Assembly (NCBI GenBank): GCA_038058745.1
Contig: JBBUAI010000013.1
Location: forward strand, 1 to 26,762
DNA length: 26,762 nucleotides
Origin: Patescibacteria group bacterium
GTDB taxonomy: Bacteria; Patescibacteriota; Minisyncoccia; Phycocordibacterales; Zambryskibacteraceae
Direction of reading: 5' to 3'
The notes under the pieces were generated by a model that saw only the letters and a program-made list of their open reading frames with translations, searched no databases and was not told the origin of the DNA. The position numbers and the translations under genes were made by a program. The number at the start of each line of letters is the position of its first letter. Within the stretch, counting starts at the first letter, position 1. Below, piece by piece: positions 3,373 to 26,762 of the stretch.

Positions 3373-3400
3373 ACTATATCAGAATCTCTAAAAAATTCAA
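3373..3400 (-). promoter_or_regulatory. Candidate sigma70-type promoter for rpsA (TTGAAT-16-TATAGT on the minus strand)
   Basis: Reverse complement reads TTGAAT tttttagagattctga TATAGT. The -35 abuts palindromic element copy A. It would give a ~95-nt 5'UTR. Confidence 0.35.
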
Positions 3401-3438
3401 CTACATAATAAGAATCCTATAGGACCACTATTATGTAG
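3401..3438. repeat. Palindromic element copy A: CTACATAATA-N18-TATTATGTAG with central CCTATAGG
   Basis: Perfect 10-bp inverted arms with palindromic centre cctatagg. The reverse complement matches copy C in 13 consecutive nt (ctactacataata), the CTATAG core and TTATTATGT. Confidence 0.55.
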
Positions 3439-3583
3439 TAGTTAAATAATTAAATAATGAAAAGGGCGGGACCATCACGGTCCCGCCCTGGTTGATCTCG
3501 GTTCCGCCGATCACGGTTGCGCGCACGTTGGTCCGAGCGAATTCCAGAACTTCCGAGAAGACCGCCAACTTGTCAGTCCGCAT
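3431..3583 (-). CDS. Possible 50-codon small ORF (MRTDKLAVFSEVLEFARTNVRATVIGGTEINQGGTVMVPPFSLFNYLTTT) inside an orphan promoter-to-terminator unit
   Basis: AGGAGG sits 8 nt upstream of the ATG (3583). It is below the ORF-track length cutoff. The terminator hairpin lies inside its 3' coding part, so it may instead be a small RNA. Confidence 0.3.
   Translation of the reverse strand: MRTDKLAVFSEVLEFARTNVRATVIGGTEINQGGTVMVPPFSLFNYLTTT
3452..3488 (-). terminator. Rho-independent terminator on the minus strand
   Basis: Minus strand reads GGGCGGGACC-GTGAT-GGTCCCGCCC followed by TTTTCATTATTT (10-bp GC-rich perfect stem plus U-run). No U-run follows it on the plus strand. Confidence 0.6.
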
Positions 3584-3603
3584 AATGTAAACCTCCTGTT
3601 ACC

Positions 3604-3632
3604 ATATTATCATATTTAAACTTAAATGTCAA
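3604..3632 (-). promoter_or_regulatory. Strong sigma70-like promoter on the minus strand: TTGACA-17-TAATAT
   Basis: Reverse complement of 3604..3632 is TTGACA tttaagtttaaatatga TAATAT. The predicted TSS is just upstream of the AGGAGG at 3598..3593. Confidence 0.5.
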
Positions 3633-3654
3633 GGATGAAAATAGGGCTCAAATT

Positions 3655-3663
3655 TGGTATAAT
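3655..3663 (+). promoter_or_regulatory. Extended -10 (TGgTATAAT) 6 nt upstream of the ATG at 3670; candidate leaderless promoter
   Basis: tttgGTATAATttagctATG. There is no Shine-Dalgarno sequence between the hexamer and the start codon. Confidence 0.4.
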
Positions 3664-3669
3664 TTAGCT

Positions 3670-4164
3670 ATGATTATCAGCTACCAAGGGGTAGAGAGCT
3701 TCAAGATTTCCCAAGGCGATTTGACGCTTGCGTTGAACCCGCAAGCGAAGGTATCAGCCGATATCACTCTCTTCACCAAAGGCCGAAATGAGACATCAGA
3801 GAAATCTGGTTTTGTTATAGACAGCCCGGGCGAATACGAAATAAAAAATGTTTTCATCAAAGGATTCCTTGATAAGACATATCTTGTGACATTTGAAGGA
3901 ATCAAATTATGCTTTCTTGGTTCAAAGGCGGAGCAGGAAGAAATTGAGGATATCGACATCCTCTTCGTGCGGCCTAACGCTTATAAAGCCGCGGTGGCTC
4001 TGGAGCCGGCTGTAATCATTCCGATGAATTATGATAAAAACACTCTGGCCCAGTTTCTGAAAGAAGCCGGAGAAGACAAAGTTCTACCACTCGACAAATT
4101 CGTGGTAAAGAAGAAGGACCTCGAGGGCATGGAAAGCGAGATAGTTGTTCTGAAAGAGGAATAG
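3670..4164 (+). CDS. Hypothetical protein; N-terminus resembles MBL-fold (UPF0173-like) hydrolases but lacks the HxHxDH metal motif
   Basis: 'MIISYQGVESFKISQGDLTLALNPQ' resembles the 'MKITYLGHS.F.IE.G...L.DP' opening of UPF0173/MBL proteins. No His-rich motif follows. 164 aa. Confidence 0.55.
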   Translation: MIISYQGVESFKISQGDLTLALNPQAKVSADITLFTKGRNETSEKSGFVIDSPGEYEIKNVFIKGFLDKTYLVTFEGIKLCFLGSKAEQEEIEDIDILFVRPNAYKAAVALEPAVIIPMNYDKNTLAQFLKEAGEDKVLPLDKFVVKKKDLEGMESEIVVLKEE

Positions 4165-4188
4165 TTCGACAAGCTCACTATAAATAAC
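4162..4188 (+). repeat. Junction motif copy 1: TAGTTCGA-N4-CTCACTATAAAT (stop-to-start linker, T7-promoter-like core)
   Basis: aTAGTTCGAcaagCTCACTATAAATaacATG. A near-identical copy lies at 8195..8217. Confidence 0.5.
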
Positions 4189-4431
4189 ATGAGAAAGTAC
4201 TTAGCCACGCTTCATAAAAGGCCGCCCCATCATAAAAAGCGTTTCGCGCTCCTTACTTCCGGCGCCTTCACCCTCTTAATCTTTGCCGTCTGGGCCCTGG
4301 TCAATTTTGGCGAAGGCGACGAAACCCCGGCCGCGGCGGAAAAATCTCTTGAAGTTATAAATCCGCTTGAATCCCTAAAAAACAACTTTAGTGATTTGAG
4401 AGATAGCACTCTCGATATTTATGGAAGATAG
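4189..4431 (+). CDS. Small single-TM membrane protein, hypothetical
   Basis: 80 aa with a basic N-terminus, one hydrophobic helix ([14 protein letters not shown]) and an acidic tail. Its 3' end overlaps the gyrA start by 11 nt. Confidence 0.45.
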
Positions 4432-6853
4432 TAAAGACAGAATAATAGCTCGTCCGATAACGAACGAGATGAAGGAGAGCTTCATCGACTATGCCATGTC
4501 GGTCATCACCGACCGCGCCCTGCCGGACATCCGCGACGGTCTTAAGCCGGTGCACCGCCGCATTCTCTATTCGATGAATGAGAAGGGCCTGACTGCCGGC
4601 GGCAAACCAAGGAAGTCGGCCACGGTGGTGGGAGACGTCATCGGCTCATACCACCCGCATGGCGATGTCGCCGTCTATGAATCGATGGTGGTTATGGCGC
4701 AAGACTTCAAGATGCGTTACCCCTTAATTATTGGACAAGGGAACTGGGGTTCCATAGACGGCGATAGCGCCGCCGCTTACCGCTATACCGAGGCCAAGAT
4801 GAGCCGCCTCGCGAGCGAGATGCTCAAGGATATAGAGAAAGAGACGGTCGACTTCAGGCCTAATTATGATGGGACGAAGACCGAACCAATGGTGCTGCCG
4901 GCCTCGGCGCCGAATCTATTATTGAACGGCACCTTGGGCATTGCCGTCGGCATGGCTACCAACATTCCGCCACACAATCTTACGGAAGTAATCGACGCTA
5001 CTATTCATCTTGCCGATGACAAAGACGTCACCACTGAAGATCTTTTGAAATTCGTGAAGGGTCCGGATTTCCCTACCGGCGGCATCATTTTCAATGAGAA
5101 GGACATTCATCACGCTTATGCCACCGGCCGCGGGCCAGTGGTGGCGAGAGGTGTGGCAGACATAGTTGAAGGCAAGAGCGGGCAGTTCCAAATCATCGTG
5201 AGCGCCATCCCTTACCGCGTCAACAAATCCGACCTTATCGAGAAGATTGCGGACTTGGTGCGGGAGAAGAAGATTGAGGGAGTGAGAGGCCTTCGCGACG
5301 AATCGACCAAGGATATTCGCGTGGTCATCGATTTGAAGCAGGGGAGCCAGCCGCAGAAAATTTTAAATGCTCTCTACAAACATACTCAGCTTGAGGATAC
5401 CTTCCACTTCAACCTTGTAGCGCTCGTCGACGGCGTGCCGCAGACCTTGTCGCTCAAGAGCATGCTCGCGGAGTTTCTGAAGCACAGGAAAGAAGTGGTT
5501 AAGCGCCGCTCGGTCTTCGACCTTGCTCGCGCGGAAGAGCGCGAGCACATCCTCCTCGGCCTCTCGAAAGCGCTTGACCACATCGAGCAGGTTATCAAGA
5601 CCATCCGAGCGTCGAAGACCGTCGACGACGCGCGCAGCGCTCTCATGAAGGAGTTTAAGTTCTCCGAAATTCAGGCCAATGCCATTCTTGAGATGCGCCT
5701 TCAGAAGCTCGCCGGCCTCGAGAGGAAGAAAGTAGAGGACGAGCTCAAGGAAGTGCAAGTGTTCATAAAGGAGATGAAAGATTTGCTGGCGTCGCCAGCA
5801 AAAATTCTAAAGGTGGTCAAAGCTGAACTCGAAGCCATCAAAGAAAAGTACGGCGACGAACGCCGCACCAAGGTCGTCAAAGGCGGAGTAAAAGCGCTTT
5901 CTGTCGAGGATTTGATACCGGACGAAGAGCAGGCGCTCGTGCTCACGGCCGGCGGCTATATCAAACGCACCAATCCGGAAGAATACAAGCGGCAGAAGCG
6001 CGGCGGTATAGGGGTGGTAGACCTCGATACCAAAGAAGAGGATTTCGTCTCCATCTTCTTAACCGCCTCCACTCATTCCGACCTTCTTTTCTTCACCGAC
6101 AAAGGCAAGGCCTATAGACTAAAGATGTACGACATACCCGAGGGCAAGCGCGCAACCCGCGGCAAGTCGGTGGTCAATTTCATCTCGCTCTCCGATGATG
6201 AAAAAGTAACCTCCATTCTTGCCATGCCTAAGGAGCTTAAAAATATCGAGGGCTCGCTAACGCTCATTACCAAGAGCGGCACGGGCAAGCGCGTCTCGGC
6301 CAAGTCCTTCCATGATGTGCGCTCATCCGGCATTATCGCTATCCGGCTCGAGCCGGGAGATAGACTTATCTCCGTCGCGCATAGCGAGAAGGGAGACAAT
6401 ATTTCCATCGTAACGAAAGAAGGCATGTCCATCCGCTTCAAGGAATCGGATATTCGCGAGATGGGCCGGGCGGCCGGTGGCGTGCGGGCCGTAAACCTAG
6501 ATAAAGGAGACGAGGTGGTGGGCTCCCACATTATAAAACCGGCATGGAAGAATGCCTGTCTTCTCGTAATCTCGGCCAACGGCTACGGCAAGCGCACCAA
6601 ACTTTCGGAATACAAGGTGCAGGGCAGGGGCGGTTCCGGCATTCTTACTTCGAAAGTTACCGTAAAGACAGGCAAAGTCATGGCATCGCAAATTGTGACC
6701 GAAGAGGAATCGGAAGTCATCGCCATCTCCAAGAAAAGCCAGGTCGTGCGCGTCGCCTTGGATGAAGTGCCGGTGCTCGGTCGTTCCACGCAAGGCGTAA
6801 GAATAATGAAATTGAGAGAAGGCGATTCACTCGCCTCGGTTATCTGCCTTTAG
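4421..6853 (+). CDS. gyrA: DNA gyrase subunit A
   Basis: '[28 protein letters not shown]', '[16 protein letters not shown]' (QRDR region) and 'GKYHPHGD'-type motifs are present. The C-terminal beta-pinwheel repeats are also present. 810 aa. Confidence 0.95.
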
Positions 6854-6899
6854 CCCTATTGGGGATTATTCTCGAGTCCGTCTGTTATAGAATTAAAAT

Positions 6900-8198
6900 A
6901 TGTCCAAGTTTCAGATAATCCTCCTTTCGACTTTCGGCTTCTTCATCATCCTTGCGGTCGTGGTCTTCGCCTTCTATCGCGGGGGCTCGAGTTCTCTTGA
7001 AGCAACAGTTGCAATCTGGGGCGATATCCACGCGGAAGACTTCAATGTTTTCCTTAACAATACCATCCAGAGCCGCGAGGAGAATCTCACTATCAAATAC
7101 AGAGAACTTTCGTCCGAGAGCATCGACCGCGAATTTACCGAGGCGTTGGCGCGCGGAGAGGGTCCTGACCTTCTCTTAACCACCCAAGACAAGTTATGGA
7201 AGGAGAAATCCAAGCTTCTCCCAATTCCCTACGAAAGCATAAGCGAACGCGATTTCAAACAGACTTTCGTTGAAGAAGGAGAGCTCTTCTTGGGCAAAGA
7301 TGGCATCTACGGCCTGCCTTTATCCATAGACCCGATGGTTCTTTATTATAATCGCGACCTTCTTACCACTGCTGGTCTTGCCCAGCCGATTGGCTATTGG
7401 GACGAAATTTATTCGACTATCTATAAGCTCACCCGCCGCGACGGCGCGGGGAATCTCGTGGAGTCCGCTATCGCCTTAGGCGAGGCGAGGAACATCCCGC
7501 ATGCCAAAGATATCCTCTCGCTTCTCTTATTACAGGCAGGCACGCCCATTACAAGCTTTACGGCTCCGCCAGATGGCGGAGAATTGCGCTCATATCTCTC
7601 GGCAAACTTCAACCTCACCGTTTCTCCCGGAGAATCCGCGCTTGATTTCTACACCCAATTCTCAAATCCTTCGAAGCCGTATTACAGTTGGAACAGGACA
7701 TTGCCTCCCGCCCAAGCCCGCTTCGTCTCGGGCGACTCGGCTTATTACTTGGGCTTCGCGAGCGAATTGAAGACTCTCCGCAATAAAAATCCGAATCTCA
7801 ATTTCAGCGTAACCACTGTGCCCCAGTCGAGAGTGCAGGGTAGGACCTTGACCTTCGGTCGCCTGCGGGCTCTCTCCATTTCGCGCGGCACCAGGTCTCC
7901 GGCCGCCGCTTTGAATGCCGCCTTGTCTCTCGTCGCCAAAGATGAGGCCTCGGTCCTCTCCCAAGTCCTTAATCTTCCGCCAGCCCGCCGCAACCTTCTC
8001 TCGCAGGAGCCTGCGGGCGCGGAGATGCCGGTTTTTTATGAAGCAGCTTTGCAGTCGAAGGGATGGCTTGACCCGGATGACGAGCGCACCCGGGCCATCT
8101 TCGGCGAGATGATAGAACAGGTTACGAGCGGCCGGGCGAGGACGCTCGAGGCCCTAAACCAGGCCGACCGCGCCCTGGAAGACGCTATAAAACAATAG
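6900..8198 (+). CDS. Extracellular solute-binding protein (family 1, MalE-like) with N-terminal TM anchor; no ABC partner genes nearby
   Basis: N-terminal TM (IILLSTFGFFIILAVVVFAF). 'ATVAIWGD...GEGPDLLL...LPLSIDPMVLYYNRDLL' parallels MalE 'KLVIW.NGDKG...GDGPDII...YPIAVEALSLIYNKDLL'. Confidence 0.65.
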   Translation: MSKFQIILLSTFGFFIILAVVVFAFYRGGSSSLEATVAIWGDIHAEDFNVFLNNTIQSREENLTIKYRELSSESIDREFTEALARGEGPDLLLTTQDKLWKEKSKLLPIPYESISERDFKQTFVEEGELFLGKDGIYGLPLSIDPMVLYYNRDLLTTAGLAQPIGYWDEIYSTIYKLTRRDGAGNLVESAIALGEARNIPHAKDILSLLLLQAGTPITSFTAPPDGGELRSYLSANFNLTVSPGESALDFYTQFSNPSKPYYSWNRTLPPAQARFVSGDSAYYLGFASELKTLRNKNPNLNFSVTTVPQSRVQGRTLTFGRLRALSISRGTRSPAAALNAALSLVAKDEASVLSQVLNLPPARRNLLSQEPAGAEMPVFYEAALQSKGWLDPDDERTRAIFGEMIEQVTSGRARTLEALNQADRALEDAIKQ

Positions 8199-8217: not shown

Positions 8218-8523
8218 ATGAAAGATTTAATTGTCTGCGACGGAGTAACGGTGCCATGCACTTTCGAAAAACTTGTTGAACTGGTGGAGGTTATCATTAC
8301 CGACCTGGTCTACCTCTCAACCTTTCTTGCCGTAGCCGCCTTCGCTTACGCTGGCTACATTCTTCTCACCTCCGGAGGCAATACCTCAGCCCGTGACAGA
8401 GCCAAGAGCATATTTCTCAAAGTACTTATCGGCTATGTGTGGATACTCGCGGCCTGGCTTGTGGTTTACACTATAACCAGTGTTTTGCTTAATCCCGGGT
8501 ATTCTCTGCTCGGTGCGCCATGA
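8218..8523 (+). CDS. Small two-TM membrane protein (VirB2/TrbC-like hairpin architecture), array member 1
   Basis: TM1 LVYLSTFLAVAAFAYAGYILL, short polar loop (TSGGNTSARDRAKS), TM2 IFLKVLIGYVWILAAWLVVYTI. 101 aa. Confidence 0.55.
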   Translation: MKDLIVCDGVTVPCTFEKLVELVEVIITDLVYLSTFLAVAAFAYAGYILLTSGGNTSARDRAKSIFLKVLIGYVWILAAWLVVYTITSVLLNPGYSLLGAP

Positions 8524-8527
8524 TAAA

Positions 8528-8881
8528 ATGAAAAAAATAATTCTTACCGCATATTACTTTCTCATCATTTCTTCGGCTTTTGCCCAGGGTGATGTCGAGC
8601 ATAGGATAGAAATCAAAAATCCCTTCGGCCGCGGCATCGACTCGCTCTTCGACCTTTTGAAAACGGTGGTAAACGATATCATCTTGCCTATAGGGGGAGT
8701 GCTCGCGGTGCTTGCTTTCATCTATTCCGGCTTTCTCTATGTGACGGCGCAGGGCAACGATACCAAGCTCAAGACGGCACACAACGCCCTTCTTTATACC
8801 GCCATAGGCACGGCGGTGCTTCTCGGTTCCTGGACTCTGGCCAATGTCATCAGCAATACTATCGATAAACTGAAGACATGA
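8528..8881 (+). CDS. Small secreted/two-TM protein (VirB2/TrbC-like), array member 2
   Basis: Start chosen at MKKIIL (8528), 5 nt after the upstream stop. Sec-type signal peptide (...SSAFAQG) followed by two hydrophobic helices separated by 'TAQGNDTKLKTAHN'. Confidence 0.55.
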   Translation: MKKIILTAYYFLIISSAFAQGDVEHRIEIKNPFGRGIDSLFDLLKTVVNDIILPIGGVLAVLAFIYSGFLYVTAQGNDTKLKTAHNALLYTAIGTAVLLGSWTLANVISNTIDKLKT

Positions 8882-9168
8882 AAGACCCCCGCACATTCGC
8901 CGACATAATAAAGATTTTTACCGGTTTAATCAGTCTTGCCGTTCCCGTCGTGGCTGCCTTGGCGCTTCTCGCCTTTCTTAAAGGTTTGGTCGCTTTTATC
9001 GCCAAGGCGGGAGATGAGAAGAGTCATGCGGAAGGCAAAAATCTCATGGTCTGGGGCCTCGTCGCTCTTTTTGTCATGGTGTCGATTTGGGGAATAGTAC
9101 GCTTCCTATCTGGAGAGGTTGGTTTCGGCCCCACCTTAAAGCTTCCCTTTTTACCCCCAGTCAAGTAA
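8878..9168 (+). CDS. Small two-TM protein, array member 3 (paralog of members 4 to 6)
   Basis: ATGA start/stop overlap with member 2. Conserved block 'ALLAFLKGLVAFIAKAGDEKSHAEGKNLMVWGLVALFVMVSIWGIV'. Confidence 0.6.
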   Translation: MKDPRTFADIIKIFTGLISLAVPVVAALALLAFLKGLVAFIAKAGDEKSHAEGKNLMVWGLVALFVMVSIWGIVRFLSGEVGFGPTLKLPFLPPVK

Positions 9169-9178
9169 TATTAAAATC

Positions 9179-9529
9179 ATGAATAAATTGACCAAAGTCT
9201 GCATTCTCACTCTGGCGGCTATTCCTTCTATGGTGTTCGCGCAAGGGCGGATTATTTTATTGCTTACAGATGTAAAGTACATCATAAGAACTCTTATCAT
9301 CATAGTCGCGGCTATTGCTCTCCTGGTTTTCTTCTGGGGCCTGGTTAGATTTATTTTCAAGGTTGGCGGAAGCGAAGAAGCGGTAAAAGAAGGCAGAACT
9401 CTCATGATATGGGGGTTAATCGCCCTCTTCGTCATGGTTACAGTGTGGGGGTTAATAAGCTTTATAGAAAGGGAAATATTCGGCACTCTTGATAAGAGTG
9501 ACCCTAATATTCCAAGCTTTAGACCTTAG
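9179..9529 (+). CDS. Small two-TM protein with signal peptide, array member 4
   Basis: Signal peptide ending AQG, then 'ALLVFFWGLVRFIFKVGGSEEAVKEGRTLMIWGLIALFVMVTVWGLISFI', clearly paralogous to members 3, 5 and 6. Confidence 0.6.
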   Translation: MNKLTKVCILTLAAIPSMVFAQGRIILLLTDVKYIIRTLIIIVAAIALLVFFWGLVRFIFKVGGSEEAVKEGRTLMIWGLIALFVMVTVWGLISFIEREIFGTLDKSDPNIPSFRP

Positions 9530-9533
9530 AATA

Positions 9534-9877
9534 GTAGGGGATAACCCCCACACCTATTTTTCTATTGTCGCAAATCATATAATACGTCTATGTATTATGT
9601 ATTATGTGTATATTCTAAAAAGTAAAAAAGATAACAATTTGTATTATGGTTCCACAAATGATTTGCGACGCAGGCTAGTAGAGCACAATACTGGTAAAAA
9701 TCGCTCTACCAAAGCTAGAAAACCATTTGAGCTGCGCTATTACGAAGCTTACTATAACGAAAATGATGCCAGAGGTAGAGAGTATTCTTTAAAGAAGGAC
9801 GGTAGAGCTTTAGCGCAGCTCAGGCGGAGGTTAGAAAATAGCCTGCTATAGAGAAATAGGTGTGGGGGATAACCCGG
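9534..9877. mobile_element. AT-rich ~340-bp cassette: GIY-YIG nuclease gene bounded by ~22-bp imperfect terminal inverted repeats, inserted within the two-TM gene array
   Basis: Left end GGGGATAACCCCCACACCTATTT (9537..9559). Right end AAATAGGTGTGGGGGATAACCCGG (9854..9877). The inner 15 nt (CCCCCACACCTATTT) are identical in inverted orientation. Each end also contains a GGGG-ATAA-CCCC mini-hairpin. Cassette GC is about 33% versus about 48% in the flanking genes. Confidence 0.45.
9597..9851 (+). CDS. GIY-YIG nuclease superfamily protein (YhbQ/UPF0213-like), 85 aa
   Basis: 'YYVYILKSKKDNNLYYGSTNDLRRRLVEHN...GKNRSTKARKPFELRYYEAY..ENDARGREYSLKK' carries the GIY...YIG, catalytic Arg and Glu/Asn motifs. 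Start placed at the in-frame ATG at 9597, where the domain begins. Confidence 0.8.
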   Translation: MYYVYILKSKKDNNLYYGSTNDLRRRLVEHNTGKNRSTKARKPFELRYYEAYYNENDARGREYSLKKDGRALAQLRRRLENSLL

Positions 9878-9965
9878 TTGTCTTTATAGTCCCTTGACGT
9901 ATCATAGATATATACCATCAGGTATTAAAATTAGTAGTAAATAGTAGATAGTAAATAGTAAATAA

Positions 9966-10310
9966 ATGAAAAAAGTTATTCTTGCCGCTCTGGCCCTGGC
10001 CCCCTCACTCGCTTTCGCACAGAATCTAGGCAACCTTAATAATCTCATAACCTCCGTTGGCAATCTTGTTGAGCTTGCCTTGCCTATTGTGGTAGCAATT
10101 GCGCTCCTCGCCTTCTTCTGGGGTTTGGTCAAATTCATCTTCTCTGCTTCCGGTGAAGAGGCGCATAAGGAAGGCCAGCGCCTGATGATCTGGGGCCTCG
10201 TTGCCCTCTTCGTCATGGTTTCCGTCTGGGGACTTGTAAAGTTTATCGGCACCGCCCTCGGCGTCCAGCAGGGAGATACCATCATTGTCCCAAGAGTTCC
10301 GGGCATATAG
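9966..10310 (+). CDS. Small two-TM protein with signal peptide, array member 5
   Basis: 'MKKVILAALALAPSLAFAQ' signal peptide, then 'ALLAFFWGLVKFIFSASGEEAHKEGQRLMIWGLVALFVMVSVWGLVKFI'. A tandem AT-rich repeat (gtaaatagtaRat x2, 9937..9963) precedes it. Confidence 0.6.
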   Translation: MKKVILAALALAPSLAFAQNLGNLNNLITSVGNLVELALPIVVAIALLAFFWGLVKFIFSASGEEAHKEGQRLMIWGLVALFVMVSVWGLVKFIGTALGVQQGDTIIVPRVPGI

Positions 10311-10364
10311 TTTCGACTCCGCTGGTTCAATATCCTCACCATAAATCACTACAAGTAGTCTCTA

Positions 10365-10631: not shown

Positions 10632-11361
10632 TTAAATGCCCCAAAGGGGCCACTTTGTGAAAAGAGCCGCCCGCGACCGTAAGGTCGGGGGCGGCTTTGA
10701 TTACCGGCACTGTATCGGGTGGTACTGGTGGCAGGTCCGGAGCGGGTTTCTTCAACTCCGGCGCGGGTGGCACCACCTTATCCGGGTGTGGTGTGCCGAT
10801 GGGCCAGAAGCGCAGGATGACGGCGACAACTGGCACTTCTTCGTCTGTGACGCGGAAGCGCACCTTCTCGACACTCTCCCTTATTGGCACGCGATTCTTG
10901 AGTTCGCGCGGGAACAAGACCGGTTTGGGCAAACTCGGTGTTTCCATCTCGTACGCTACGAGCTCCGTCCTGTCGAATGCCAGATGATAGCCCAGTGGCA
11001 CGTCAACCCACTCTGACCATTCCAGGTCGATGAGGATGGTGTGGACGACCACCCTGTTCGGTGTGGCACGTCCTCCGCCGGAAACGGAGTAATCTCTCCA
11101 TTGCCGGTAGGAACTCCCGACGACAAGTAAGAGTAGAGCGATCACTAGGACCGTTCCGATAGGGAAGCTTCCCTGACGTCCGCCGGCCTTGAAAAAATAG
11201 ACCAGGCTCGCTAGGACGACGAGAAGGAGAAGAACCCAGAGAATCGGCCTCCACGAGGTGCCGGTGAAAAGGCCAGAAAAATACCTGACCACCACCATCG
11301 CGAGTACTAGGCAGATGAGAGCCCAAACCATGACTTGAAACTTCGTGAGCAAAGCACGCAT
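10603..11361 (-). CDS. Membrane protein: three N-terminal TM helices, a beta-rich middle domain and a Pro-rich C-terminal tail; possibly NfeD-like
   Basis: TM segments MVWALICLVLAMVVV, ILWVLLLLVVLASLVYFF and IGTVLVIALLLLVVGSS. Tail 'PPAPELKKPAPDLPPVPPDTVP'. GGAGGAG SD 4 nt before the ATG, with a TGaTATAAT extended -10 at 11394..11402 (minus strand). Confidence 0.6.
   Translation of the reverse strand: MRALLTKFQVMVWALICLVLAMVVVRYFSGLFTGTSWRPILWVLLLLVVLASLVYFFKAGGRQGSFPIGTVLVIALLLLVVGSSYRQWRDYSVSGGGRATPNRVVVHTILIDLEWSEWVDVPLGYHLAFDRTELVAYEMETPSLPKPVLFPRELKNRVPIRESVEKVRFRVTDEEVPVVAVILRFWPIGTPHPDKVVPPAPELKKPAPDLPPVPPDTVPVIKAAPDLTVAGGSFHKVAPLGHLIRIRGKKAE
10666..10702 (+). terminator. Rho-independent terminator ending the two-TM array (GNRA tetraloop hairpin plus T-run)
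   Basis: GCCGCCCGCGACC-GTAA-GGTCGGGGGCGGC (13-bp stem, 1 mismatch) followed by TTTGATT. It lies inside the 3' end of the convergent minus-strand ORF 10603..11361. A smaller hairpin gcccc-aaa-ggggc sits at 10639..10651. Confidence 0.55.
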
Positions 11362-11423
11362 GCAACTCCTCCTTAGATATTCAGTCTGCTTAAATTATAT
11401 CACATATTATATTAAAAAGCCAA

Positions 11424-11454
11424 GGGCCGGACGATATATCGTCCGGCCCGTTTT
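11424..11454. terminator. Bidirectional intrinsic terminator between two minus-strand genes
   Basis: GGGCCGGACGA-TATA-TCGTCCGGCCC perfect palindrome. It is followed by TTTT on the plus strand, and on the minus strand after 3 nt (TTGGCTTTTTAAT). Confidence 0.7.
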
Positions 11455-11458
11455 CACC

Positions 11459-12490
11459 TCACTTGCCCAATGGTATCGCCGTACTTGCTCCGGGAGCGAA
11501 GGTGGTCATCGTCTTGTTGTTCTCGTAGGCGTCGGCCCACCTTACCAAGGCCATTTCAGGACTCGCCGCTGCTGGTTTGATTACCCGCGCGATGCGGTCA
11601 GCGTCAGCGTCGTTCTTGAGTATCTGCTTCTGCTTCTCCCTCTCGGCATCGATGAGCTGCGCTTCCTTTGTTTTTTCGGCTGTCACCTTCAGTTCGAGGA
11701 GCGCGCGATACTTGGGGTCCATGGTGACATCGCGGATGCTCACTTTCTCTATATCGAAACCTATCTCTCTTTCAATCACCTCCCGTAAGACCACATCATT
11801 CTCGATGCGCTCTGCCATCGTCTTGCGGTTCGCTTCCGCGTGAGGGCCGCCGATGTAAGCTTCTGCCGTCTGGGAGGTCGTCATGTTATTGACGATGTTT
11901 TCGACAAGACTGGTGAGAAAGGCCGATGCATCGGCCAGTTTCAGGACCGACCGGACCGGAAATTTTCTCGCAAAAACGAAATCAATTTCGAAGTTGAGGC
12001 CAATCAGGTCGAAAGTGTCGGCTTCCTTGACCTTGACCGTCAGGTCGCCGGTGTAGAAAACGTTCCTGGTTTGGTACGCCTTGGCGACCGTGCGAAGCTC
12101 CTCTTTCTGGCCCTCTTGCGCGAATCGCAGATGCCGGTCGACGTTGACTCGCGGCTTCCAGAAAGGATTGCCCATTGACTGGATGCCGAGAGTTCTGAAC
12201 AGGAAAGCCGAGTGTCTCGGGTCTTCGCCTATTTTCTCGAAATGCCAATTCATGGGGTCTGGGTCATTGTCCTTGACCAAAGTTTGACCGCTCACTCCAT
12301 GGAGGACATCCACCACGGTGCCGCTGCCCTTCATGCCGTCGCCGGACTCGTCTTCATGGGTCACGATGAGAGCGAAGGTGTTGGCCGGGGTAAATATCCA
12401 CAGCTTGTCTCTCTTGGCCAGTTCCCGGACGATGACAGCCGGGGCGACGAAGAATAAGACTGCGAGAAGGATGGTAATCAGAATCTCCAT
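11459..12490 (-). CDS. SPFH/band-7 (stomatin/prohibitin/flotillin-like) domain membrane protein
   Basis: N-terminal TM, then SPFH-like 'FEIDFVFARKFPVRSVLKLADASAFLTSLVENIVNNMTTSQTAEAYIG' and a coiled-coil 'AEKTKEAQLIDAEREKQKQILKNDADADRIARV' typical of band-7 proteins. Confidence 0.7.
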   Translation of the reverse strand: MEILITILLAVLFFVAPAVIVRELAKRDKLWIFTPANTFALIVTHEDESGDGMKGSGTVVDVLHGVSGQTLVKDNDPDPMNWHFEKIGEDPRHSAFLFRTLGIQSMGNPFWKPRVNVDRHLRFAQEGQKEELRTVAKAYQTRNVFYTGDLTVKVKEADTFDLIGLNFEIDFVFARKFPVRSVLKLADASAFLTSLVENIVNNMTTSQTAEAYIGGPHAEANRKTMAERIENDVVLREVIEREIGFDIEKVSIRDVTMDPKYRALLELKVTAEKTKEAQLIDAEREKQKQILKNDADADRIARVIKPAAASPEMALVRWADAYENNKTMTTFAPGASTAIPLGK

Positions 12491-12677
12491 ATGTTCTCCT
12501 AGGGAAGGAAATGTGTGAAGGGTGTTCAGTCTTCCTTAATTATGACACGTTATAAAATAAATGCAAATGAGAAATCCACCATACAACATTTTGACTTAAT
12601 CCGAAATTGGAGTAAACTAGTCAAAAGATTGCTCTATTTCAGAGAAACCATTTAAATACGCTTGCGGAGGTGGAGAG

Positions 12678-16619: not shown

Positions 16620-16662
16620 ACCATAGCTTTGTTTTTACCCCGGCTTTCTGTAAAATAGCCCC

Positions 16663-17886
16663 ATGAGACAGAGCCAACTCTTTACTAAAACTCGCCGGGA
16701 GGCGCCAGCGGATGAAGTCTCCAAGAACGCCATTCTCCTCACCCGCGCCGGATTCATACACAAAGAAATGGCGGGCGTTTATTCATATCTGCCTTTGGGA
16801 TTGAAAGTGCTTAAAAAGATAGAAAGTGTTATTCGCGAAGAAATGGACAAGCTTGGTGCGCAGGAAATTGAGTTGGCGACATTTCAAAACAAGGAATTGT
16901 GGGAAAAGACAAATCGTTGGGACGATAAAATTATTGACGTTTGGTACAAATTGCGTGATGAAGATATTGGATTAGGATTTACACATGAGGAACCATTGAC
17001 TGCTATCGCAAAGGAATACGTGCAATCATACCGAGACCTACCCTTCTCCGCTTATCAATTCCAGACAAAATTCAGAAGAGAATTAAGGACTAAATCAGGT
17101 ATTATGCGTGGCCGAGAGTTTCTAATGAAAGATCTCTATTCTTTCTGTGAAAATTATGATCAGCATCGTGATTTTTATAAAAAAGCACAGGACTCATATA
17201 AACGGATTTTTGATAGAGTAGGAATAGGTCATTTAACGTATCTAACCTATGCGTCTGGCGGTAGTTTTTCAGATGTCTCTCATGAATTCCAAACAATTAC
17301 TGCTTCTGGTGAAGATATAATATTTATACGCGAAGAAAATGATTATGCAGTTAATAAAGAAATATTTAATGATGAGTGGAAGGCGAAACTTAATATGAAC
17401 AAGTTTAGGGAGGAGAAATCAATTGAGGTGGGAAATATATTTAATCTAGGCACAAAATTTTCAGAAGCTCTAGGTTTGAAATATAAAGAGATTGACGGAA
17501 GTGAAAGGCCGGTATGGATGGGCTCATATGGTATTGGTTTGGGAAGACTCATGGGCACTGTAGTCGAAGTGCTTTCAGATGAGAAGGGAATTGTCTGGCC
17601 GAAAGAGGTAGCGCCGTTTCAAGTTCATTTAATTTCTCTCAATCAGAATGAGCTCTCGGATGAGGTTTATAAAACCCTTAGAGCCAATAAAATAGACGTT
17701 CTTTATGATGACCGCGATGTTCGCGCCGGGGAAAAGTTCGCAGACGCAGACTTAATTGGTATCCCGCTCCGCGTCGTGATTGGGGAAAAGTCTCTTGAAT
17801 CAAAAATGCTTGAGGTCAAAAATAGGAATGCCGATGAGGTACGACAGGTTACTCTCGAATATTTGCTCGAGGAGTTAAAAAGTTAA
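16663..17886 (+). CDS. proS: Prolyl-tRNA synthetase, bacterial-like N-terminus but lacking an editing (INS) domain (407 aa)
   Basis: 'MRQSQLFTKTRREAPADE...LLTRAGFI......Y..LPLGLKVLKKIE.VIREEM' parallels E. coli ProS. Class II motif 2 'FRRELRTKSGIMRGREFLMKDLYSF' and motif 3 'GSYGIGLGRLMG' are present. Confidence 0.9.
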   Translation: MRQSQLFTKTRREAPADEVSKNAILLTRAGFIHKEMAGVYSYLPLGLKVLKKIESVIREEMDKLGAQEIELATFQNKELWEKTNRWDDKIIDVWYKLRDEDIGLGFTHEEPLTAIAKEYVQSYRDLPFSAYQFQTKFRRELRTKSGIMRGREFLMKDLYSFCENYDQHRDFYKKAQDSYKRIFDRVGIGHLTYLTYASGGSFSDVSHEFQTITASGEDIIFIREENDYAVNKEIFNDEWKAKLNMNKFREEKSIEVGNIFNLGTKFSEALGLKYKEIDGSERPVWMGSYGIGLGRLMGTVVEVLSDEKGIVWPKEVAPFQVHLISLNQNELSDEVYKTLRANKIDVLYDDRDVRAGEKFADADLIGIPLRVVIGEKSLESKMLEVKNRNADEVRQVTLEYLLEELKS

Positions 17887-22187: not shown

Positions 22188-23750
22188 TTGGAGCACCAAA
22201 AAAATAGATTTGATTTTTCGAAAGTGAAAGACAAAACTTCCTGGGCCTCACAGGCGGCGGATGAAATTATTGCCGCGCATCCTGGCGAAGGAGCATATGT
22301 GACGGCCGCTGGCATCAGTCCTTCGGGAGTGGTGCACTTTGGCAATTTCCGCGACGTGGCAACTGCTCACCTGGTACGGGAAGAACTGGTCAGAAAAGGC
22401 AAAAAATCCAAACTCATCTTCTCCTGGGACAATTTTGACCGTTTCCGAAAAATTCCGGCCGGTGTGCCGGAATCCTTCTCCGAGTATATCGGCAAGCCGC
22501 TTTCCAAAATTCCCGACCCTATGGGTAAACTTTCTTCATACGCGGAGCATTTCCAAAAGCTGTTTGTCGAAGCGATGCGAAAACTTAACATCGAAATCGA
22601 GTATCGTGACCAGACGACTTTGTATGAAAGCGGTATTTATGATGAAGCGATTTTTGAAGCGCTTAAGAAGAGGAAGGAAATCGCGGATATTCTACTCTCC
22701 TTCATGTCGGAGAAAGCAAAGGGGGAGAAGGGTATTAATCCCGCCGAATACCAGGAAAACTATTATCCTATTTCCGTCTACTCCCGCTTTACAGGCAAAG
22801 ATACCACGAAGGTTCTTAGATTCGACGGTAATACCAGTATCACTTATCTCTGTGTCGAAACGGGCAAGGAAGAGCCCATAGACCTTTCAAAAGAACATAT
22901 CGCCAAGCTTGCCTGGAAAGTGGATTGGCCCATGAGGTGGCGGCACGAGAGGGTGGTTTTCGAGCCAGGCGGACACGACCACGCTTCCCCGGGGTCGAGC
23001 TTCGACATCGGTACGGAGATTGCGCCGAAAATATTCGATTACAATCCACCGCTTTTCGTCGAGTATAAATTTGTGGGCATCCAGGGCCTCGGCGCTAAGA
23101 TGTCCGGTTCAAAGGGTAATGCCATCTCTCCCTTAGAGCTCATGGAAGTCTATGAGCCGGAGGTGTTGAAGTGGCTTTACTTCAGGAAGTCGCCCGACCA
23201 ATCATTCGAACTCGCTTTCAATACGGAAATTTATCGCCAATATGATGAATACGACGCAGAACATTTGGAACTTAATTCCATCCCATTCCGCCAGGTAGTC
23301 GGCTTCGGACAGGTTGTGCAATGGCAGGAGAATAAATTAAAAACCATTCTTGATGCGCTCAATTTAAAATACAGTACAAAAAGTATTTCCAGCCGACTAC
23401 CGCTCGCGAAAAATTGGCTCGAGAAATACAATCCATACGAAGTAATAAAATTAAACAATACTCCAAACTCCTCTTACGCGTTTTCCATGAATGATGTGGG
23501 GAGAAGACAAATCAATCGGTTGCGGGAAGAATTGGAGAAAAATAAAAATGCTTCAGTCCAGGAGCTGGATATCCTGGTCTACGATATTCCAAAATTGCCA
23601 GGGTTGAACGAAGAAGAATTAAAGAAAGCTCAAAGAGCGTTCTTTAAAGACGTTTACAATCTTTTAATAAACAGGGATGCTGGTCCTCGCCTCGGCACTT
23701 TCCTCTGGGCTGCGGATAGGGGACAAGTTTTGAAGCTATTGACTTTTTAA
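22188..23750 (+). CDS. lysK: Class I lysyl-tRNA synthetase (LysK type)
   Basis: TTG start adjacent to the greA stop. HIGH-like 'GISPSGVVHFGNFRDV' and KMSKS-like 'KMSGSKGNAISP' match class I LysRS rather than class II LysS. Confidence 0.8.
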   Translation: MEHQKNRFDFSKVKDKTSWASQAADEIIAAHPGEGAYVTAAGISPSGVVHFGNFRDVATAHLVREELVRKGKKSKLIFSWDNFDRFRKIPAGVPESFSEYIGKPLSKIPDPMGKLSSYAEHFQKLFVEAMRKLNIEIEYRDQTTLYESGIYDEAIFEALKKRKEIADILLSFMSEKAKGEKGINPAEYQENYYPISVYSRFTGKDTTKVLRFDGNTSITYLCVETGKEEPIDLSKEHIAKLAWKVDWPMRWRHERVVFEPGGHDHASPGSSFDIGTEIAPKIFDYNPPLFVEYKFVGIQGLGAKMSGSKGNAISPLELMEVYEPEVLKWLYFRKSPDQSFELAFNTEIYRQYDEYDAEHLELNSIPFRQVVGFGQVVQWQENKLKTILDALNLKYSTKSISSRLPLAKNWLEKYNPYEVIKLNNTPNSSYAFSMNDVGRRQINRLREELEKNKNASVQELDILVYDIPKLPGLNEEELKKAQRAFFKDVYNLLINRDAGPRLGTFLWAADRGQVLKLLTF

Positions 23751-24254: not shown

Positions 24255-24824
24255 TTAGATAAGATTGAAATCCATCCGTAAATACTTGTCGTTTTCTATT
24301 TGGTCCACTATCATGTAAAGCAAATTCTTTCCTATACCTAGATCAGTTTTCATCAAGCCCATAACATCTTCGCAATCGTAAGGATAAACCCAAACGCTGT
24401 CTTGTAGCCGGATGAATCCTGTGGCTGAAAGTATTTTTCTAACCCGTTCTCGCATTTTCTTTTTCTTCTCCGGAATGTCGAAGATTATCACTCGCCACTT
24501 TTTATCCCATCTTTTTGGACGTTTAATTCGATAGTTAGACATTTGCCATTGATCTAATATTTTTGTTCCGGCTGCAGTAGGAGAATAATGCCCGTTCTCA
24601 AATATAAGCAATCCTTTTCGGCTTAAGCGACTTGCGGCAGATTTCACTATCTCACTTTTTCTTGGAGAAGTAGCGGAGAAATCAGTATCGAGCAGGGAGT
24701 CTATTACTTGTTTTGCTAGCATATCTCCTCCTATTCTTCCGCTAGAAACAATAACTAAAAGAATTGCCTCCTGCATTTTTGTTCTTCTTAAATTTTTTCT
24801 AGTTGCTTCCTCGAGATTTCCCAT
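24255..24824 (-). CDS. Hypothetical regulator-like protein: N-terminal winged-helix-like region plus a C-terminal segment resembling the Cas2/VapD beta-alpha-beta core
   Basis: C-terminal 'WRVIIFDIPEKKKKMRERVRKILSATGFIRLQDSVWVYP' resembles the Cas2 N-terminal core as recalled from memory ('hhVhV.YDIs.dkRRrKlaKlL.dyG.RvQ.SVFEc'). N-terminal 'EIVKSAASRLSRKGLLIFENG' looks like a wHTH recognition helix plus wing. About 38% GC. Flanked by palindromic copies B and C. The start may be Met1 or Met17. Confidence 0.55.
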   Translation of the reverse strand: MGNLEEATRKNLRRTKMQEAILLVIVSSGRIGGDMLAKQVIDSLLDTDFSATSPRKSEIVKSAASRLSRKGLLIFENGHYSPTAAGTKILDQWQMSNYRIKRPKRWDKKWRVIIFDIPEKKKKMRERVRKILSATGFIRLQDSVWVYPYDCEDVMGLMKTDLGIGKNLLYMIVDQIENDKYLRMDFNLI

Positions 24825-24901: not shown

Positions 24902-26128
24902 TTATTTTCTCTCTTTTATCTCGTCTTTAAGTTTGATAATCAAATCGTCGGGAGACATTTGGCCCAAGTTTCCGGCATCTCGGCTTTCGACAGAGACTTT
25001 CTTATCAGCCACTTCCTTGTCTCCGATGACGAGGGCGTAGGGAACTTTCTCTATTTTGAAATTACGGATCTTCTTGCTTAGAGTTTCGTTTGACACATCC
25101 ATCTCCACTCTCATATTAGCTGCTTTAAGCTTATCCATTACTTCGGTGGCGTAGAGGAAGTGAGTTTCGCCAATAGGCAAGATTTTCACTTGTACTGGAG
25201 CGAGCCAGAGAGGGAAGGCGCCAGCGTATTTCTCGATTAAAAAGGCCATGAATCTTTCTATCGTTCCAACCGAAGAACGGTGAATAACGAATGCACGATG
25301 TTTCTTGCCATCTTCACCAATGTAAGAGAGATCGAACCTGTCAGGCATACAGAAATCGTACTGGACAGTAAATGCCGTATCTTCTTTGCCATTCACGTTT
25401 TTTATCTGAATGTCAATCTTCGGTCCATAGAAAGCCGCCTCACCCTTAGCTTCCTCGAATTCACCTACACGCTTCTTTAGAAGTTGTCGCAGAAGCTGCT
25501 CACTTTTCTCCCAAGCTTTATCATTTTTGTAATATTTCTCAGTGTTACTCCTATCGCCCATAGATAATCTGTAACGATAATCTCTGCCAAGCTCAAGCCC
25601 AAAGACGCTAGCCACATACTCTATAAGATCCAAGGCCTTACTGGCTTCTTCTACAGCCTGCTCCTCAGATGCGCAGATGATATGAGCATCAGAAAGGCAC
25701 ATAGCTCTAGTTCTCTGAAGGCCCATAAGCTCTCCTGATTGCTCGTAGCGATAGAGTTTTGCCCATTCAGCAATACGCATCGGAAGGTCTTTATAGCTTC
25801 TGGGTCTACTTAAATACATCTCAAAATGATGCGGGCAAGTCATTGGACGAAGTATAAATTCCTCATCATCTATAACAATAGGAGCATACATACTGTCCTG
25901 GTAATGAGGATAGTGACCAGATTTCTTATATAAATCTAACTTTGCGATATCGGGAGTGTAGACATGCATATAACCGCGTAACGTTTCTTCCTCAACAATA
26001 AATTTCTCGATCTCGCGCCTGATGATCGAACCTTTAGGCAGCCAGAGGGGGAGCCCTTTACCCACGGTATCCGAGAAGGTAAAAAGCTCCAGCTCTTTAC
26101 CTAACTTCTTATGGTCCCTTTCTTCCAT
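24902..26128 (-). CDS. thrS: Threonyl-tRNA synthetase, catalytic core plus anticodon-binding domain only (no TGS or editing N-domains)
   Basis: 'RDHKKLGKELELF', 'PMTCPHH', 'TRAMCLSDAHIIC', 'FYGPKIDIQI', 'QYDFCMPDRF' and 'HRSSVGTIERFMAFLIEKYAGAFPLWLAPVQVKILPI' match the ThrRS class II core and anticodon-binding domain. 408 aa. Confidence 0.9.
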   Translation of the reverse strand: MEERDHKKLGKELELFTFSDTVGKGLPLWLPKGSIIRREIEKFIVEEETLRGYMHVYTPDIAKLDLYKKSGHYPHYQDSMYAPIVIDDEEFILRPMTCPHHFEMYLSRPRSYKDLPMRIAEWAKLYRYEQSGELMGLQRTRAMCLSDAHIICASEEQAVEEASKALDLIEYVASVFGLELGRDYRYRLSMGDRSNTEKYYKNDKAWEKSEQLLRQLLKKRVGEFEEAKGEAAFYGPKIDIQIKNVNGKEDTAFTVQYDFCMPDRFDLSYIGEDGKKHRAFVIHRSSVGTIERFMAFLIEKYAGAFPLWLAPVQVKILPIGETHFLYATEVMDKLKAANMRVEMDVSNETLSKKIRNFKIEKVPYALVIGDKEVADKKVSVESRDAGNLGQMSPDDLIIKLKDEIKERK

Positions 26129-26138: not shown

Positions 26139-26762
26139 TTACAGGGCCTTTATCTTCTCGGCAATGAAGGATGTTTCGCCTTTGCGTTTCGAAACCTTAC
26201 CTTTGATGGCGATGCAGGCGTCCGGGTAGACATACTCACGGAATTCAGAGAGTACTCTCGGGAAGACGGCTACCTCGGTTGAGCCGGAGAGGTCCGCGAG
26301 CTTCATGAAGACCATGCGCTCGTTGTTCTTCGTAAGGACATCGCGCGCGCCTTCGACCATGCCACCAATGACGGTGACAGCGCCTTCGGGCAAATCTTTG
26401 AGCTTGGCGATATTCATATCCTTTGAAAGAAACTTTTCCTTATGCGCTTCGAGTGGATGGCCGGAAATGTAGAGCCCTAAAAGTTCTTTTTCCCAACCAA
26501 GCTTCTCCCTCAGAGAAGTTGGTTGCCCTGAGCTTATTCGAAGGGCAGGCAGCGATTCGGTGGTAAAGAGAGAGCTCTGATTGTCCGAGGTGTTCATTCT
26601 TTCTTTGTGGTAGGAAAGAAGAGCATTAAGATTGGCAAGCAGGAGCCCGCGTTCTTCAAATTCATCCAAGGCGCCAGATTTTATAAGTGCCTCGAGCGAT
26701 TTCTTGTTTAAATTTTTGTCTTTGATGCGGTCGAGGAAGTCAGCCAGATTCTTGAACTTGCC
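26139..26762 (-). CDS. dnaE: DNA polymerase III alpha subunit, C-terminal part (gene continues beyond the window end)
   Basis: 'KELLGLYISGHPL' and the OB-fold 'ERMVFMKLADLSGSTEVAVFPRVL'. The frame stays open upstream of the TTG at 26669 to the window edge (...LADFLDRIKDKNLNKKSLEALIKSGALDEF). Confidence 0.85.
   Translation of the reverse strand, partial: GKFKNLADFLDRIKDKNLNKKSLEALIKSGALDEFEERGLLLANLNALLSYHKERMNTSDNQSSLFTTESLPALRISSGQPTSLREKLGWEKELLGLYISGHPLEAHKEKFLSKDMNIAKLKDLPEGAVTVIGGMVEGARDVLTKNNERMVFMKLADLSGSTEVAVFPRVLSEFREYVYPDACIAIKGKVSKRKGETSFIAEKIKAL

Follow-up and report, generated by a model that had tools for sequence, protein, structure and literature searches.

A mosaic prolyl-tRNA synthetase gene in a Zambryskibacteria-like Patescibacteria bacterium and its probable origin by intragenic recombination

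We analyzed a DNA stretch of 26,762 nucleotides (nt) from a Patescibacteria group bacterium (assembly GCA_038058745.1, contig JBBUAI010000013.1; hereafter the window, 26.8 kb with a GC content of 48.9%), and this report concerns its prolyl-tRNA synthetase gene, proS. The gene (16663..17886, plus strand) codes for a bacterial-type ProRS of 407 amino acids (aa), consisting of a class II core and an HGTP anticodon-binding domain, with matches to the Pfam profiles PF00587 (E = 1.2e-28) and PF03129 (E = 1.4e-19) and a score of 423 bits against the NCBIfam model TIGR00409 (proS_fam_II; cutoff, 306.7), the latter match falling into two stretches. Its best matches in the PDB were the bacterial ProRS structures 5ZNJ, 2J3L, and 2I4L. 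The protein is devoid of the INS editing domain: residues 1 to 241 aligned with residues 1 to 242 of the 5ZNJ chain and residues 252 to 402 with residues 403 to 556, such that 5ZNJ residues 243 to 402 were skipped, and this INS-less subtype is common to all ProRS homologues recovered. The gene resides in the order holB-frr-rseP-proS-mreB-mreC-PBP2-greA, which is conserved across Paceibacteria, with rseP-proS-mreB kept in most of the related loci, and this conservation indicates that proS is a resident gene at its ancestral locus. A tRNA scan of the whole window yielded no tRNA genes.

A sequence-only reading of this DNA had placed an AT-rich core at 16850 to 17700 inside proS, flanked by ends of host-like composition, and had attributed it to replacement of the catalytic core by recombination with a foreign, AT-rich proS. 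The four 60-nt GC counts given there were exact on recount (0.55, 0.317, 0.367, and 0.517). In 300-nt windows, GC was 0.33 to 0.40 over about 16800 to 17700, versus 0.49 to 0.55 upstream and 0.55 to 0.64 downstream, and the minimum of the entire 26.8 kb (0.330) was located at 17101 to 17400. Along the gene, GC at third codon positions (GC3) started at 0.58 to 0.67 in codons 1 to 40, fell to 0.10 to 0.30 over 17113 to 17500, and returned to about 0.5 near the end. Since GC3 itself falls in the centre of proS, the shift occurs at synonymous sites and is not an amino-acid effect; amino-acid composition alone was ruled out as the cause of the dip, given that GC3 drops to 0.10 to 0.25. The low-GC stretch is not uniform, with GC3 values of 0.38, 0.25, and 0.41 for codons 46 to 161, 162 to 290, and 291 to 346, respectively. 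The dip itself was thus confirmed, and the foreign tract defined by sequence relationships spans about 16801 to 17547 instead of 16850 to 17700. The 5′ end of the gene is host-like (GC3 0.58), and the 3′ end is so only in part (GC3 0.48 versus about 0.61 in the neighbouring genes).

No other gene of the window contains an internal step as strong as this one. Overall, proS has a GC3 of 0.38 versus 0.53 to 0.70 in most genes of the window, and a per-gene change-point test identified it as the gene with the strongest internal GC3 tract (codons 163 to 237, 0.15 versus 0.43; 0/200 permutations). The only other signals at 0 to 1 of 200 permutations came from mreB and from the gene at 2148 to 3269, where the tracts cover about the whole gene minus some 20 to 30 end codons. 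Across 113 related Paceibacteria loci, the difference in GC3 between proS and its neighbours averaged −0.011 (standard deviation, 0.049), which ruled out a general AT shift of proS in Paceibacteria, and the deficit of −0.23 in the window was the most extreme of the 113. The next most extreme deficits were those of the closest relatives of the window, namely −0.17, −0.14, and −0.12 at loci L175, L180, and L177, respectively (here and below, L and P numbers are our handles for related loci or contigs and for ProRS proteins). Other AT-shifted genes in the window are thrS (GC3 0.45), a PaaX-like gene (0.35), and a GIY-YIG open reading frame (ORF) (0.38). Taken together, the per-gene scan and the 113 loci showed that comparable dips do not occur in most other genes.

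The closest relative, L175, was recovered from well H43 of the Hainich aquifer and has the same gene order as the window. A search with RseP gave closer genome relatives than any ProRS-based search, and a scan of species-representative genomes listed only ProRS relatives of 54 to 62% identity, with neither the source species nor L175 among the matches listed. Protein identity between the window and L175 was 98% for MreB, 90% for both RRF and GreA, 87% for FKBP, 86% for RseP, 86 to 87% for PBP2, 83% for MreC, and 77% for holB, and it was only 64 to 66% for ProRS, with the divergence limited to codons ~46 to 295 and 331 to 407. Nine flanking genes (77 to 98% aa identity) gave nonsynonymous divergence (dN) of 0.01 to 0.15 and synonymous divergence (dS) of 0.46 to 0.90. 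Codons 1 to 45 and 296 to 330 of proS fell on this baseline, and codons 47 to 162 and 163 to 295 had dN values of 0.30 and 0.44, respectively, with saturated dS. In other Paceibacteria pairs whose neighbouring genes are less similar than those of the window and L175 (RseP, 72 to 80%; MreB, 86 to 95%; PBP2, 76 to 78%), ProRS was 84 to 91% identical. The ProRS pair of the window and L175 is thus an extreme outlier, and L175 is an outlier at proS only, as replacement of the core would give.

Relationships also change along the protein. The best whole-length ProRS homologues were only 69 to 70% identical to that of the window, and the identity was very uneven. Over aa 46 to 150, identity was about 56 to 59% to P0003 (encoded at L089, L090, and L095) and 72 to 75% to P0005 and P0013, and P0004 (L093) reached 87 to 88% over aa 46 to 161. 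Over aa 151 to 300, P0003 was 83% identical, versus 55% for P0004 and 55 to 60% for P0005 and P0013, and over aa 301 to 407 the corresponding values were 49%, 59%, and 65 to 70%. In an alignment of 281 proS sequences, comprising the 120 best whole-protein matches and the locus-derived proS, none was close to the window in both the second and the third of the blocks defined below.

Several tests supported these changes of affinity. With L093 and L089 as parents, a MaxChi-type triplet test on amino acids found 43 of 44 informative residues to be L089-like inside aa 164 to 311, compared with 10 of 72 outside (0/500 permutations). When L087 or L091 took the place of L093, 30 of 31 and 44 of 48 residues inside were donor-like. 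In this test, five parent triplets gave 0/500 permutations each. A triplet analysis at the nucleotide level with the GC-rich parent L093 returned a composition-driven tract and was dropped in favour of the amino-acid tests and a three-parent hidden Markov model (HMM), the latter using nucleotide sites at which exactly one of L175, L093, and L089 matches the window. Neighbor-joining (NJ) trees with 200 bootstraps placed the window with P0004 for codons 1 to 161 (200/200; 197/200 for codons 46 to 161), within a Zambryskibacteria-type clade, and with P0003 and P0016 for codons 164 to 285 (200/200). These results indicated that the segment phylogenies are strongly incongruent, with conflicting sister groups at 200/200 each. 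The resulting blocks, junctions, and HMM segments are summarized in Table 1.

Table 1. Blocks, junctions (J1 to J3), and associated features of the proS mosaic, with the segments assigned by the three-parent HMM (positions are those of the window)
Feature	Position	Strand	Basis or closest sequence
rseP-proS spacer, promoter-like motif GCTTTGTTTTT...TTTCTGTAAAATAGCCCC directly 5′ of the proS ATG	16620..16662	+	native
Block 1, codons 1-45, native 5′ end, GC3 0.58	16663..16797	+	L175: 100% aa, 88% nt; dN 0.00, dS 0.82; HMM assigns L175
J1, codons ~45-47, 5′ crossover and 5′ GC step	16795..16803	+	codon alignment; HMM switch at gene nt 135-139
Block 2, codons 47-162, including motif 2, GC3 0.38	16801..17148	+	closest is the P0004/L093 allele
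J2, codons ~158-163, end of motif 2 strand KSGIMRGREFLMKDLYSF	17134..17151	+	protein and codon alignments
Block 3, codons 163-295, foreign, most AT-rich, GC3 0.25	17149..17547	+	closest is the P0003/P0016 lineage (L089, L090, L095, L094)
INS-remnant linker, codons ~236-252, NDEWKAKLNMNKFREEK, long form, inside block 3	17368..17418	+	diagnostic indel common to P0003/P0016
J3, codons ~289-298, 3′ crossover inside motif 3 (GIGLGRLMGT)	17527..17556	+	HMM switch at gene nt 885-894
Block 4a, codons 296-330, native	17548..17652	+	L175: dN 0.08, dS 0.59; at codon 330, same indel pattern as L175
Block 4b, codons 331-407, bulk of the anticodon-binding domain, GC3 ~0.45-0.48	17653..17886	+	L175: dN 0.26, dS 2.4
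HMM segment, codons 9-45	16689-16797		L175, 11/14 unique-match sites
HMM segment, codons 47-162	16801-17148		L093, 56/75 unique-match sites
HMM segment, codons 163-295	17149-17547		L089, 73/112 unique-match sites
HMM segment, codons 298-402	17556-17868		L175 (weak), 37/66 unique-match sites

The native 5′ part extends upstream of the coding sequence, as the 13 nt directly 5′ of the proS ATG are identical in L175, and the promoter-like motif is recognizable in L087 and L180 as well. The spacer between rseP and proS measures 43 bp in the window; L175 has an extra ORF of 115 aa there (3578-3925), and L087 has a Trp_repressor ORF and an ORF of 123 aa between the two genes (6467-7389). These extra small ORFs in relatives indicate that the region just upstream of proS is structurally variable, too. 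J1 lies just past the N-terminal block of conserved nucleotides, where helix 44-63 begins in an AlphaFold2 (AF2) model.

Block 2 was 88% identical in aa and 79% in nt to L093, versus 63% and 64%, respectively, to L175, and its dN was 0.07 against L093 and 0.30 against L175. A deletion of 3 residues near aa 97 is common to the window and the Zambryskibacteria-type sequences. The MaxChi-type test placed the breakpoint of J2 between aa 158 and aa 162 to 164, at the end of strand 152-162 in the model, and the start of the GC3 change-point tract, codon 163, coincides with J2 and with the onset of the GC3 minimum.

Block 3 was 83% identical in aa and 77% in nt to L089, and 47 to 59% in aa to all close genomic relatives, with a dN of 0.09 against L089 and 0.44 against L175; GC3 was as low as 0.15 in its codons 163 to 237 (17149-17373). 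It includes a linker at the position at which INS is deleted in the 5ZNJ alignment, which is about 9 aa shorter in all of the close genomic relatives (L175, L180, L093/P0004, L087/P0005, L091/P0013, and L006). The long form is also present in L041 and L057, and the commonest long-length class accounts for 178 of the 281 sequences. At J3, where strand 285-292 of the model gives way to helix 293-304, the codons upstream are L089-like, and from codon 296 onwards 39 of 42 nt are those of L175. The most conserved nucleotide blocks thus neighbour the junctions: across ten homologues, the 30-nt conservation beside J1, J2 (in the block of codons 151 to 161), and J3 fell at the 93rd, 99th, and 95th percentiles, respectively. 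Block 4b is more diverged from L175 than the flanking-gene baseline and about equally diverged from other relatives; for codons 347 to 407 the nearest sequence was P0056, but its identity of 84% falls short of significance over a length of 60 aa.

Modeling predicts a normal ProRS fold for the chimeric protein. The AF2 model had a mean predicted local distance difference test (pLDDT) score of 90.1 and a predicted template modeling (pTM) score of 0.91, with pLDDT values of 94 to 97 around the junctions, and the protein has the shared residue at every invariant column of a 119-sequence family alignment, including R138, E140, R142, G290, G292, and R295.

As to the sources, L089 and L090 belong to a distant Paceibacteria lineage, given their low identity to the window in RseP (47%), MreB (71%), and PBP2 (50%). 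Their nearest named genomes are the Hainich bins H52-bin031_1 (L041) and H43-bin019_1 (L057), both with about 36% GC. The proS of L089 has a GC3 of 0.32 in the central block and 0.36 on average, compared with 0.25 in block 3 of the window. P0004 is encoded by a GC-rich Zambryskibacteria-type relative from Hainich well H43, in the same aquifer, and P0004, L175, L041, and L057 all come from the Hainich aquifer; one JGI sample (Ga0209542) contains proS of both the P0003 type and the Zambryskibacteria type. Judged by these sequence relationships, the putative donors are other Paceibacteria of 36 to 44% GC, some of them from the same aquifer, and not members of a remote phylum. Since the long linker is the common state in Paceibacteria and the short form prevails in the clade of the window, the window is probably the recipient. 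A protein search with the centre only returned short or partial proteins (at most 242 aa and at most 66% identity over substantial coverage) and missed P0001 and P0003, and it was uninformative on donors. In a centre-only scan of metagenome contigs, the known P0003-type L095 (83%) was the only close match, with the rest at 61% or less, and no closer donor was present in that collection. Dating of the imports by dS was dropped, as synonymous sites were saturated against all donor-like sequences.

On this evidence, we consider, with a probability of about 0.85, that the GC discontinuity in proS reflects an intragenic recombination mosaic. The host is a relatively GC-rich (coding GC3 of about 0.6), Zambryskibacteria-like member of the Paceibacteria (Patescibacteria, or candidate phyla radiation [CPR]), which has retained its own promoter region, the first 45 codons, and codons ~296 to 330 of proS. 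Block 3 was replaced by DNA of an AT-richer relative affiliated with the P0003/P0016 lineage, and block 2 was likely replaced as well, from a P0004-type Zambryskibacteria allele. The conflicting segment trees and the behaviour of L175 bear out the replacement of catalytic-core sequence by foreign, AT-rich proS DNA that the sequence-only reading had proposed; its single foreign core gives way to two or more blocks that differ in origin, and the junctions are found near 16800, 17148, and 17547.

Mechanistically, DNA of co-occurring lineages would have entered the cell and would have been integrated by homeologous recombination, with crossovers probably located in the few nucleotide blocks still similar between diverged proS genes, i.e., the N-terminal block, motif 2, and motif 3. 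Because these conserved blocks coincide with secondary-structure boundaries, the chimera keeps the family-invariant residues and a normal predicted fold, and the GC dip arises because the imported pieces retain donor-like synonymous composition. Experimental work has demonstrated natural competence with homologous recombination in Saccharibacteria (PMC10633639), the genes for both are reported to be widespread in Patescibacteria (for competence and recombination in this group, see PMC10633639 and PMC12455944), and horizontal gene transfer (HGT) of translation genes has been reported among groundwater Patescibacteria (PMC12455944).

Several observations weigh against this interpretation. The sequences concerned are about 60 to 65% identical in nt, and recombination at such divergence should be very rare. 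No direct donor has been sampled, the best matches being 83% in aa and 77% in nt for block 3 and 88% and 79% for block 2; with donors this distant and dS saturated, the timing, the number of events, and the direction rest on parsimony. The case for block 2 is weaker than that for block 3: L093 is GC-rich there (GC3 0.52 versus 0.38 in the window), and the foreign status of the block hinges on L175, whose own proS is AT-shifted and might itself be the copy that was replaced. The C-terminal 77 codons are assignable to no lineage (bootstrap of at most 17/200 in the NJ tree of codons 300 to 407). Moreover, a slightly higher GC3 in codons 1 to 45 than in the core is common in the proS family, such that part of the 5′ step may be intrinsic.

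The number of imports is less certain than the mosaic itself. A single import of about 750 bp (codons ~47 to 295), bringing in an already mosaic allele from an unsampled AT-rich donor, would explain why block 2 adjoins block 3 and why an AT shift is seen in each, and mosaic donors are plausible, since the proS alleles of this clade are decoupled from their flanking genes. Yet the absence of a sequence close to the window in both blocks among the 281 (P0003, 56 to 59% and 83%; P0004, 88% and 55%) and the difference in GC3 between the blocks (0.38 versus 0.25), with a sharp change-point exactly at J2, argue for two imports, and we regard the single import as unlikely, albeit a possibility to be kept in mind. 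Transfer of block 3 in the opposite direction, with the lineage of the window or a third lineage giving the centre to the P0003 lineage, could account for the fact that, in the centre, P0003 is 83% identical to the window, compared with 75% to P0016 and 56 to 59% to its genomic relatives L041 and L057. This direction is improbable, as the close relatives of the window have the short linker and centres only 47 to 59% identical to its own, the long linker, found in P0003, P0016, L041, and L057, is the usual one in Paceibacteria, and the centre of the window, with a GC3 of 0.25, sits in a genome of about 0.6, while that of L089 (0.32) is near its own gene average (0.36).

Two explanations that dispense with transfer altogether have very low probability in our view. 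An assembly or binning chimera, created by a de Bruijn path jump between co-occurring populations at k-mers shared in conserved motifs, would put junctions into the most conserved nucleotide blocks, where they are indeed found, and related populations do co-occur in the same aquifer. Nevertheless, four assemblies agree on the mosaic, and base identity over all of the junctions extends to three assemblies besides that of the window. The Logan per-run assemblies ERR3858113 and ERR3858114 (Hainich groundwater) are 100% identical to the window across J1 to J3, a metaSPAdes-style contig of another sample (ENA ERZ1292643; L004, Hainich H51_R3) carries the same mosaic with 3 nt differences in 13.9 kb, and a contig of a Patescibacteria metagenome-assembled genome (GCA_964367465.1, CAYIXK010000002.1; L001) matches the window at 99.96%. 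Furthermore, neither the top 120 whole-protein matches nor the centre-only metagenome contig scan contained a protein with the centre of the window and other flanks, and the conserved blocks are only about 75 to 80% identical between the lineages, a level at which k-mers of 31 or more would not be shared. Vertical descent with a locally accelerated core (relaxed or positive selection with AT-biased mutation) draws on the AT-shifted proS core of three sister genomes (the window, L175, and L180/L177), which could hint at a locus-specific process, e.g., a lack of GC-biased gene conversion. Acceleration would produce long branches, not 83 to 88% identity to specific lineages together with a shared 9-aa indel and conflicting sister groups at 200/200, and the divergence drops back to the baseline abruptly at the junctions.

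Some strain-level variation was visible among these near-identical contigs. All three differences between L004 and the window are confined to a 19-bp stretch in which the foreign block ends on its 3′ side (17493 T>C, 17507 G>A [R282K], and 17511 G>A), which suggests either population micro-heterogeneity or a second conversion endpoint near J3. At 26271-26388, in the 3′ region of dnaE, 8 of the 9 mismatches to L001 are found within 118 bp, which may be a small recombination or strain-variant patch.

Replacement of the proS core appears to be recurrent in the clade formed by the window, L175, and L180. The cores of L175 and of L180/L177 differ from that of the window and from each other (65 to 68% overall), with P0110 and P0106 as near relatives for L175 and P0065 for L180. 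The presence of three divergent AT-shifted cores, each with near relatives of its own, implies that at least two of the three sister lineages replaced the core.

Two other aminoacyl-tRNA synthetase (aaRS) slots within the same 10 kb vary among relatives, and mreB, mreC, PBP2, and greA are vertical. As stated in the sequence-only reading, lysK (22188-23750, plus strand) encodes a class I LysRS (TIGR00467). Its slot, with greA and thrS on either side, is occupied by a class I LysRS gene in the window, L091 (8326-9888), and L010, and by a class II LysRS gene (TIGR00499/NF001756) in L087 (13028-14386), L085, and L180 (10069-11268), which looks like in situ displacement of class I and class II LysRS among related genomes. 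The same reading was correct in describing thrS as AT-shifted (GC3 0.45) and lacking an editing domain: the gene (24902-26128, minus strand) encodes a ThrRS of 408 aa that matches only positions 170 to 564 of TIGR00418, without the N-terminal region of full-length ThrRS, in which the TGS and editing domains lie. The ThrRS of L175 is full length (578 aa; 10778-12514, minus strand). ThrRS of the window was 47 to 53% identical to those of all relatives, compared with 67 to 76% for the C terminus of the adjacent DnaE, and it is probably another replaced aaRS allele. A broader reading, which we consider rather doubtful, is that the proS core and the LysRS and ThrRS slots form an exchangeable cassette, with repeated swaps among Paceibacteria that share a groundwater habitat, and that this swapping is maintained by selection (e.g., by natural aaRS-targeting inhibitors or toxins, or through loss of editing domains) and not by neutral drift, with the conserved class II motifs serving as recombination joints.

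Further observations concern other parts of the locus. The minus-strand gene at 24255-24824 codes for a PaaX_M/Cas2-like protein of 189 aa and has the lowest GC3 (0.35) of any full gene in the window; a protein of 74% identity occupies the same slot in L091, and the gene is absent from L175, L087, and L180. At 8218-10342, some six small ORFs that match T4SS_pilin (PF18895/TrbC), in part only weakly, form a cluster, and the GIY-YIG nuclease ORF that interrupts it (9597-9851, GC3 0.38) may be a mobile insertion of the homing-endonuclease kind. On the P0004 contig L093, mreB (3185-4404) was called truncated (282 aa), with tblastn pieces at 3185-3439 and 3544-4401; this split may be a frameshift or an assembly error.

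The proS mosaic can be compared with three known systems. The term aaRS homeoalleles (Andam, Williams, and Gogarten) refers to divergent versions that replace one another in conserved syntenic context by recombination (PMC3191353). The present case resembles them in that divergent proS alleles are found at the same syntenic slot, with an identity decoupled from that of the neighbours (66% versus 86 to 98% between the window and L175), and in that class I and class II LysRS, as well as short and full-length ThrRS, alternate at neighbouring slots. In the published homeoallele cases, crossovers are placed in the conserved genes on either side and the aaRS gene is exchanged in full, whereas here they are intragenic (J1 ~16800, J2 ~17148, and J3 ~17547) and the enzyme is a chimera of at least three lineages; in addition, the proS alleles, at about 50 to 65% aa identity, are less divergent than classical homeoalleles (about 29% for ThrRS-C/R).

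The penicillin-binding-protein (pbp) genes of Streptococcus and Neisseria are mosaics generated by interspecies recombination after natural transformation, with donors about 5 to 25% diverged in DNA. Like these, proS contains sharp-edged foreign blocks in a native essential gene, recognized by segment divergence and composition, and DNA uptake is the likely route. Unlike these, the proS blocks differ by about 35 to 43% in DNA from native-type sequence, the host is an uncultivated CPR bacterium known from metagenomes alone, and we know of no selective agent for the proS mosaic. As an enzyme, the ProRS resembles those with a reduced or absent INS (e.g., that of Rhodopseudomonas palustris, PDB 2I4L), which have a class II core plus a C-terminal HGTP domain. 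It differs from the R. palustris type in that INS is represented by a linker of 10 to 20 residues, of which two length classes exist in Paceibacteria, and the window combines the long class with a genomic background otherwise of the short class. In our literature search, we came across no earlier account of an aaRS mosaic of intragenic type from Patescibacteria. The proS mosaic adds a well-supported CPR example to the known recombination-driven replacement of aaRS and is not a new kind of system.

The finding provides an internally controlled case in which an essential translation enzyme has been rebuilt from at least three lineages differing by 35 to 45% in DNA, and it is relevant to the view that transfer is resisted by informational genes as well as to the divergence limits of natural recombination. 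For phylogenetic work on Paceibacteria, proS is an unreliable marker, as thrS and lysS/lysK probably are, and composition-based HGT detectors operating gene by gene would misplace the boundaries of the proS mosaic. With junctions at motif boundaries, the locus represents a natural chimeragenesis experiment on interchangeable ProRS modules. The presence of three variable aaRS slots within 10 kb, with vertical cell-shape genes between them, suggests that aaRS genes are targeted, either by selection or for mechanistic reasons, and if the cassette reading were true, aaRS genes would be recombination hot spots that diversify within the CPR community.

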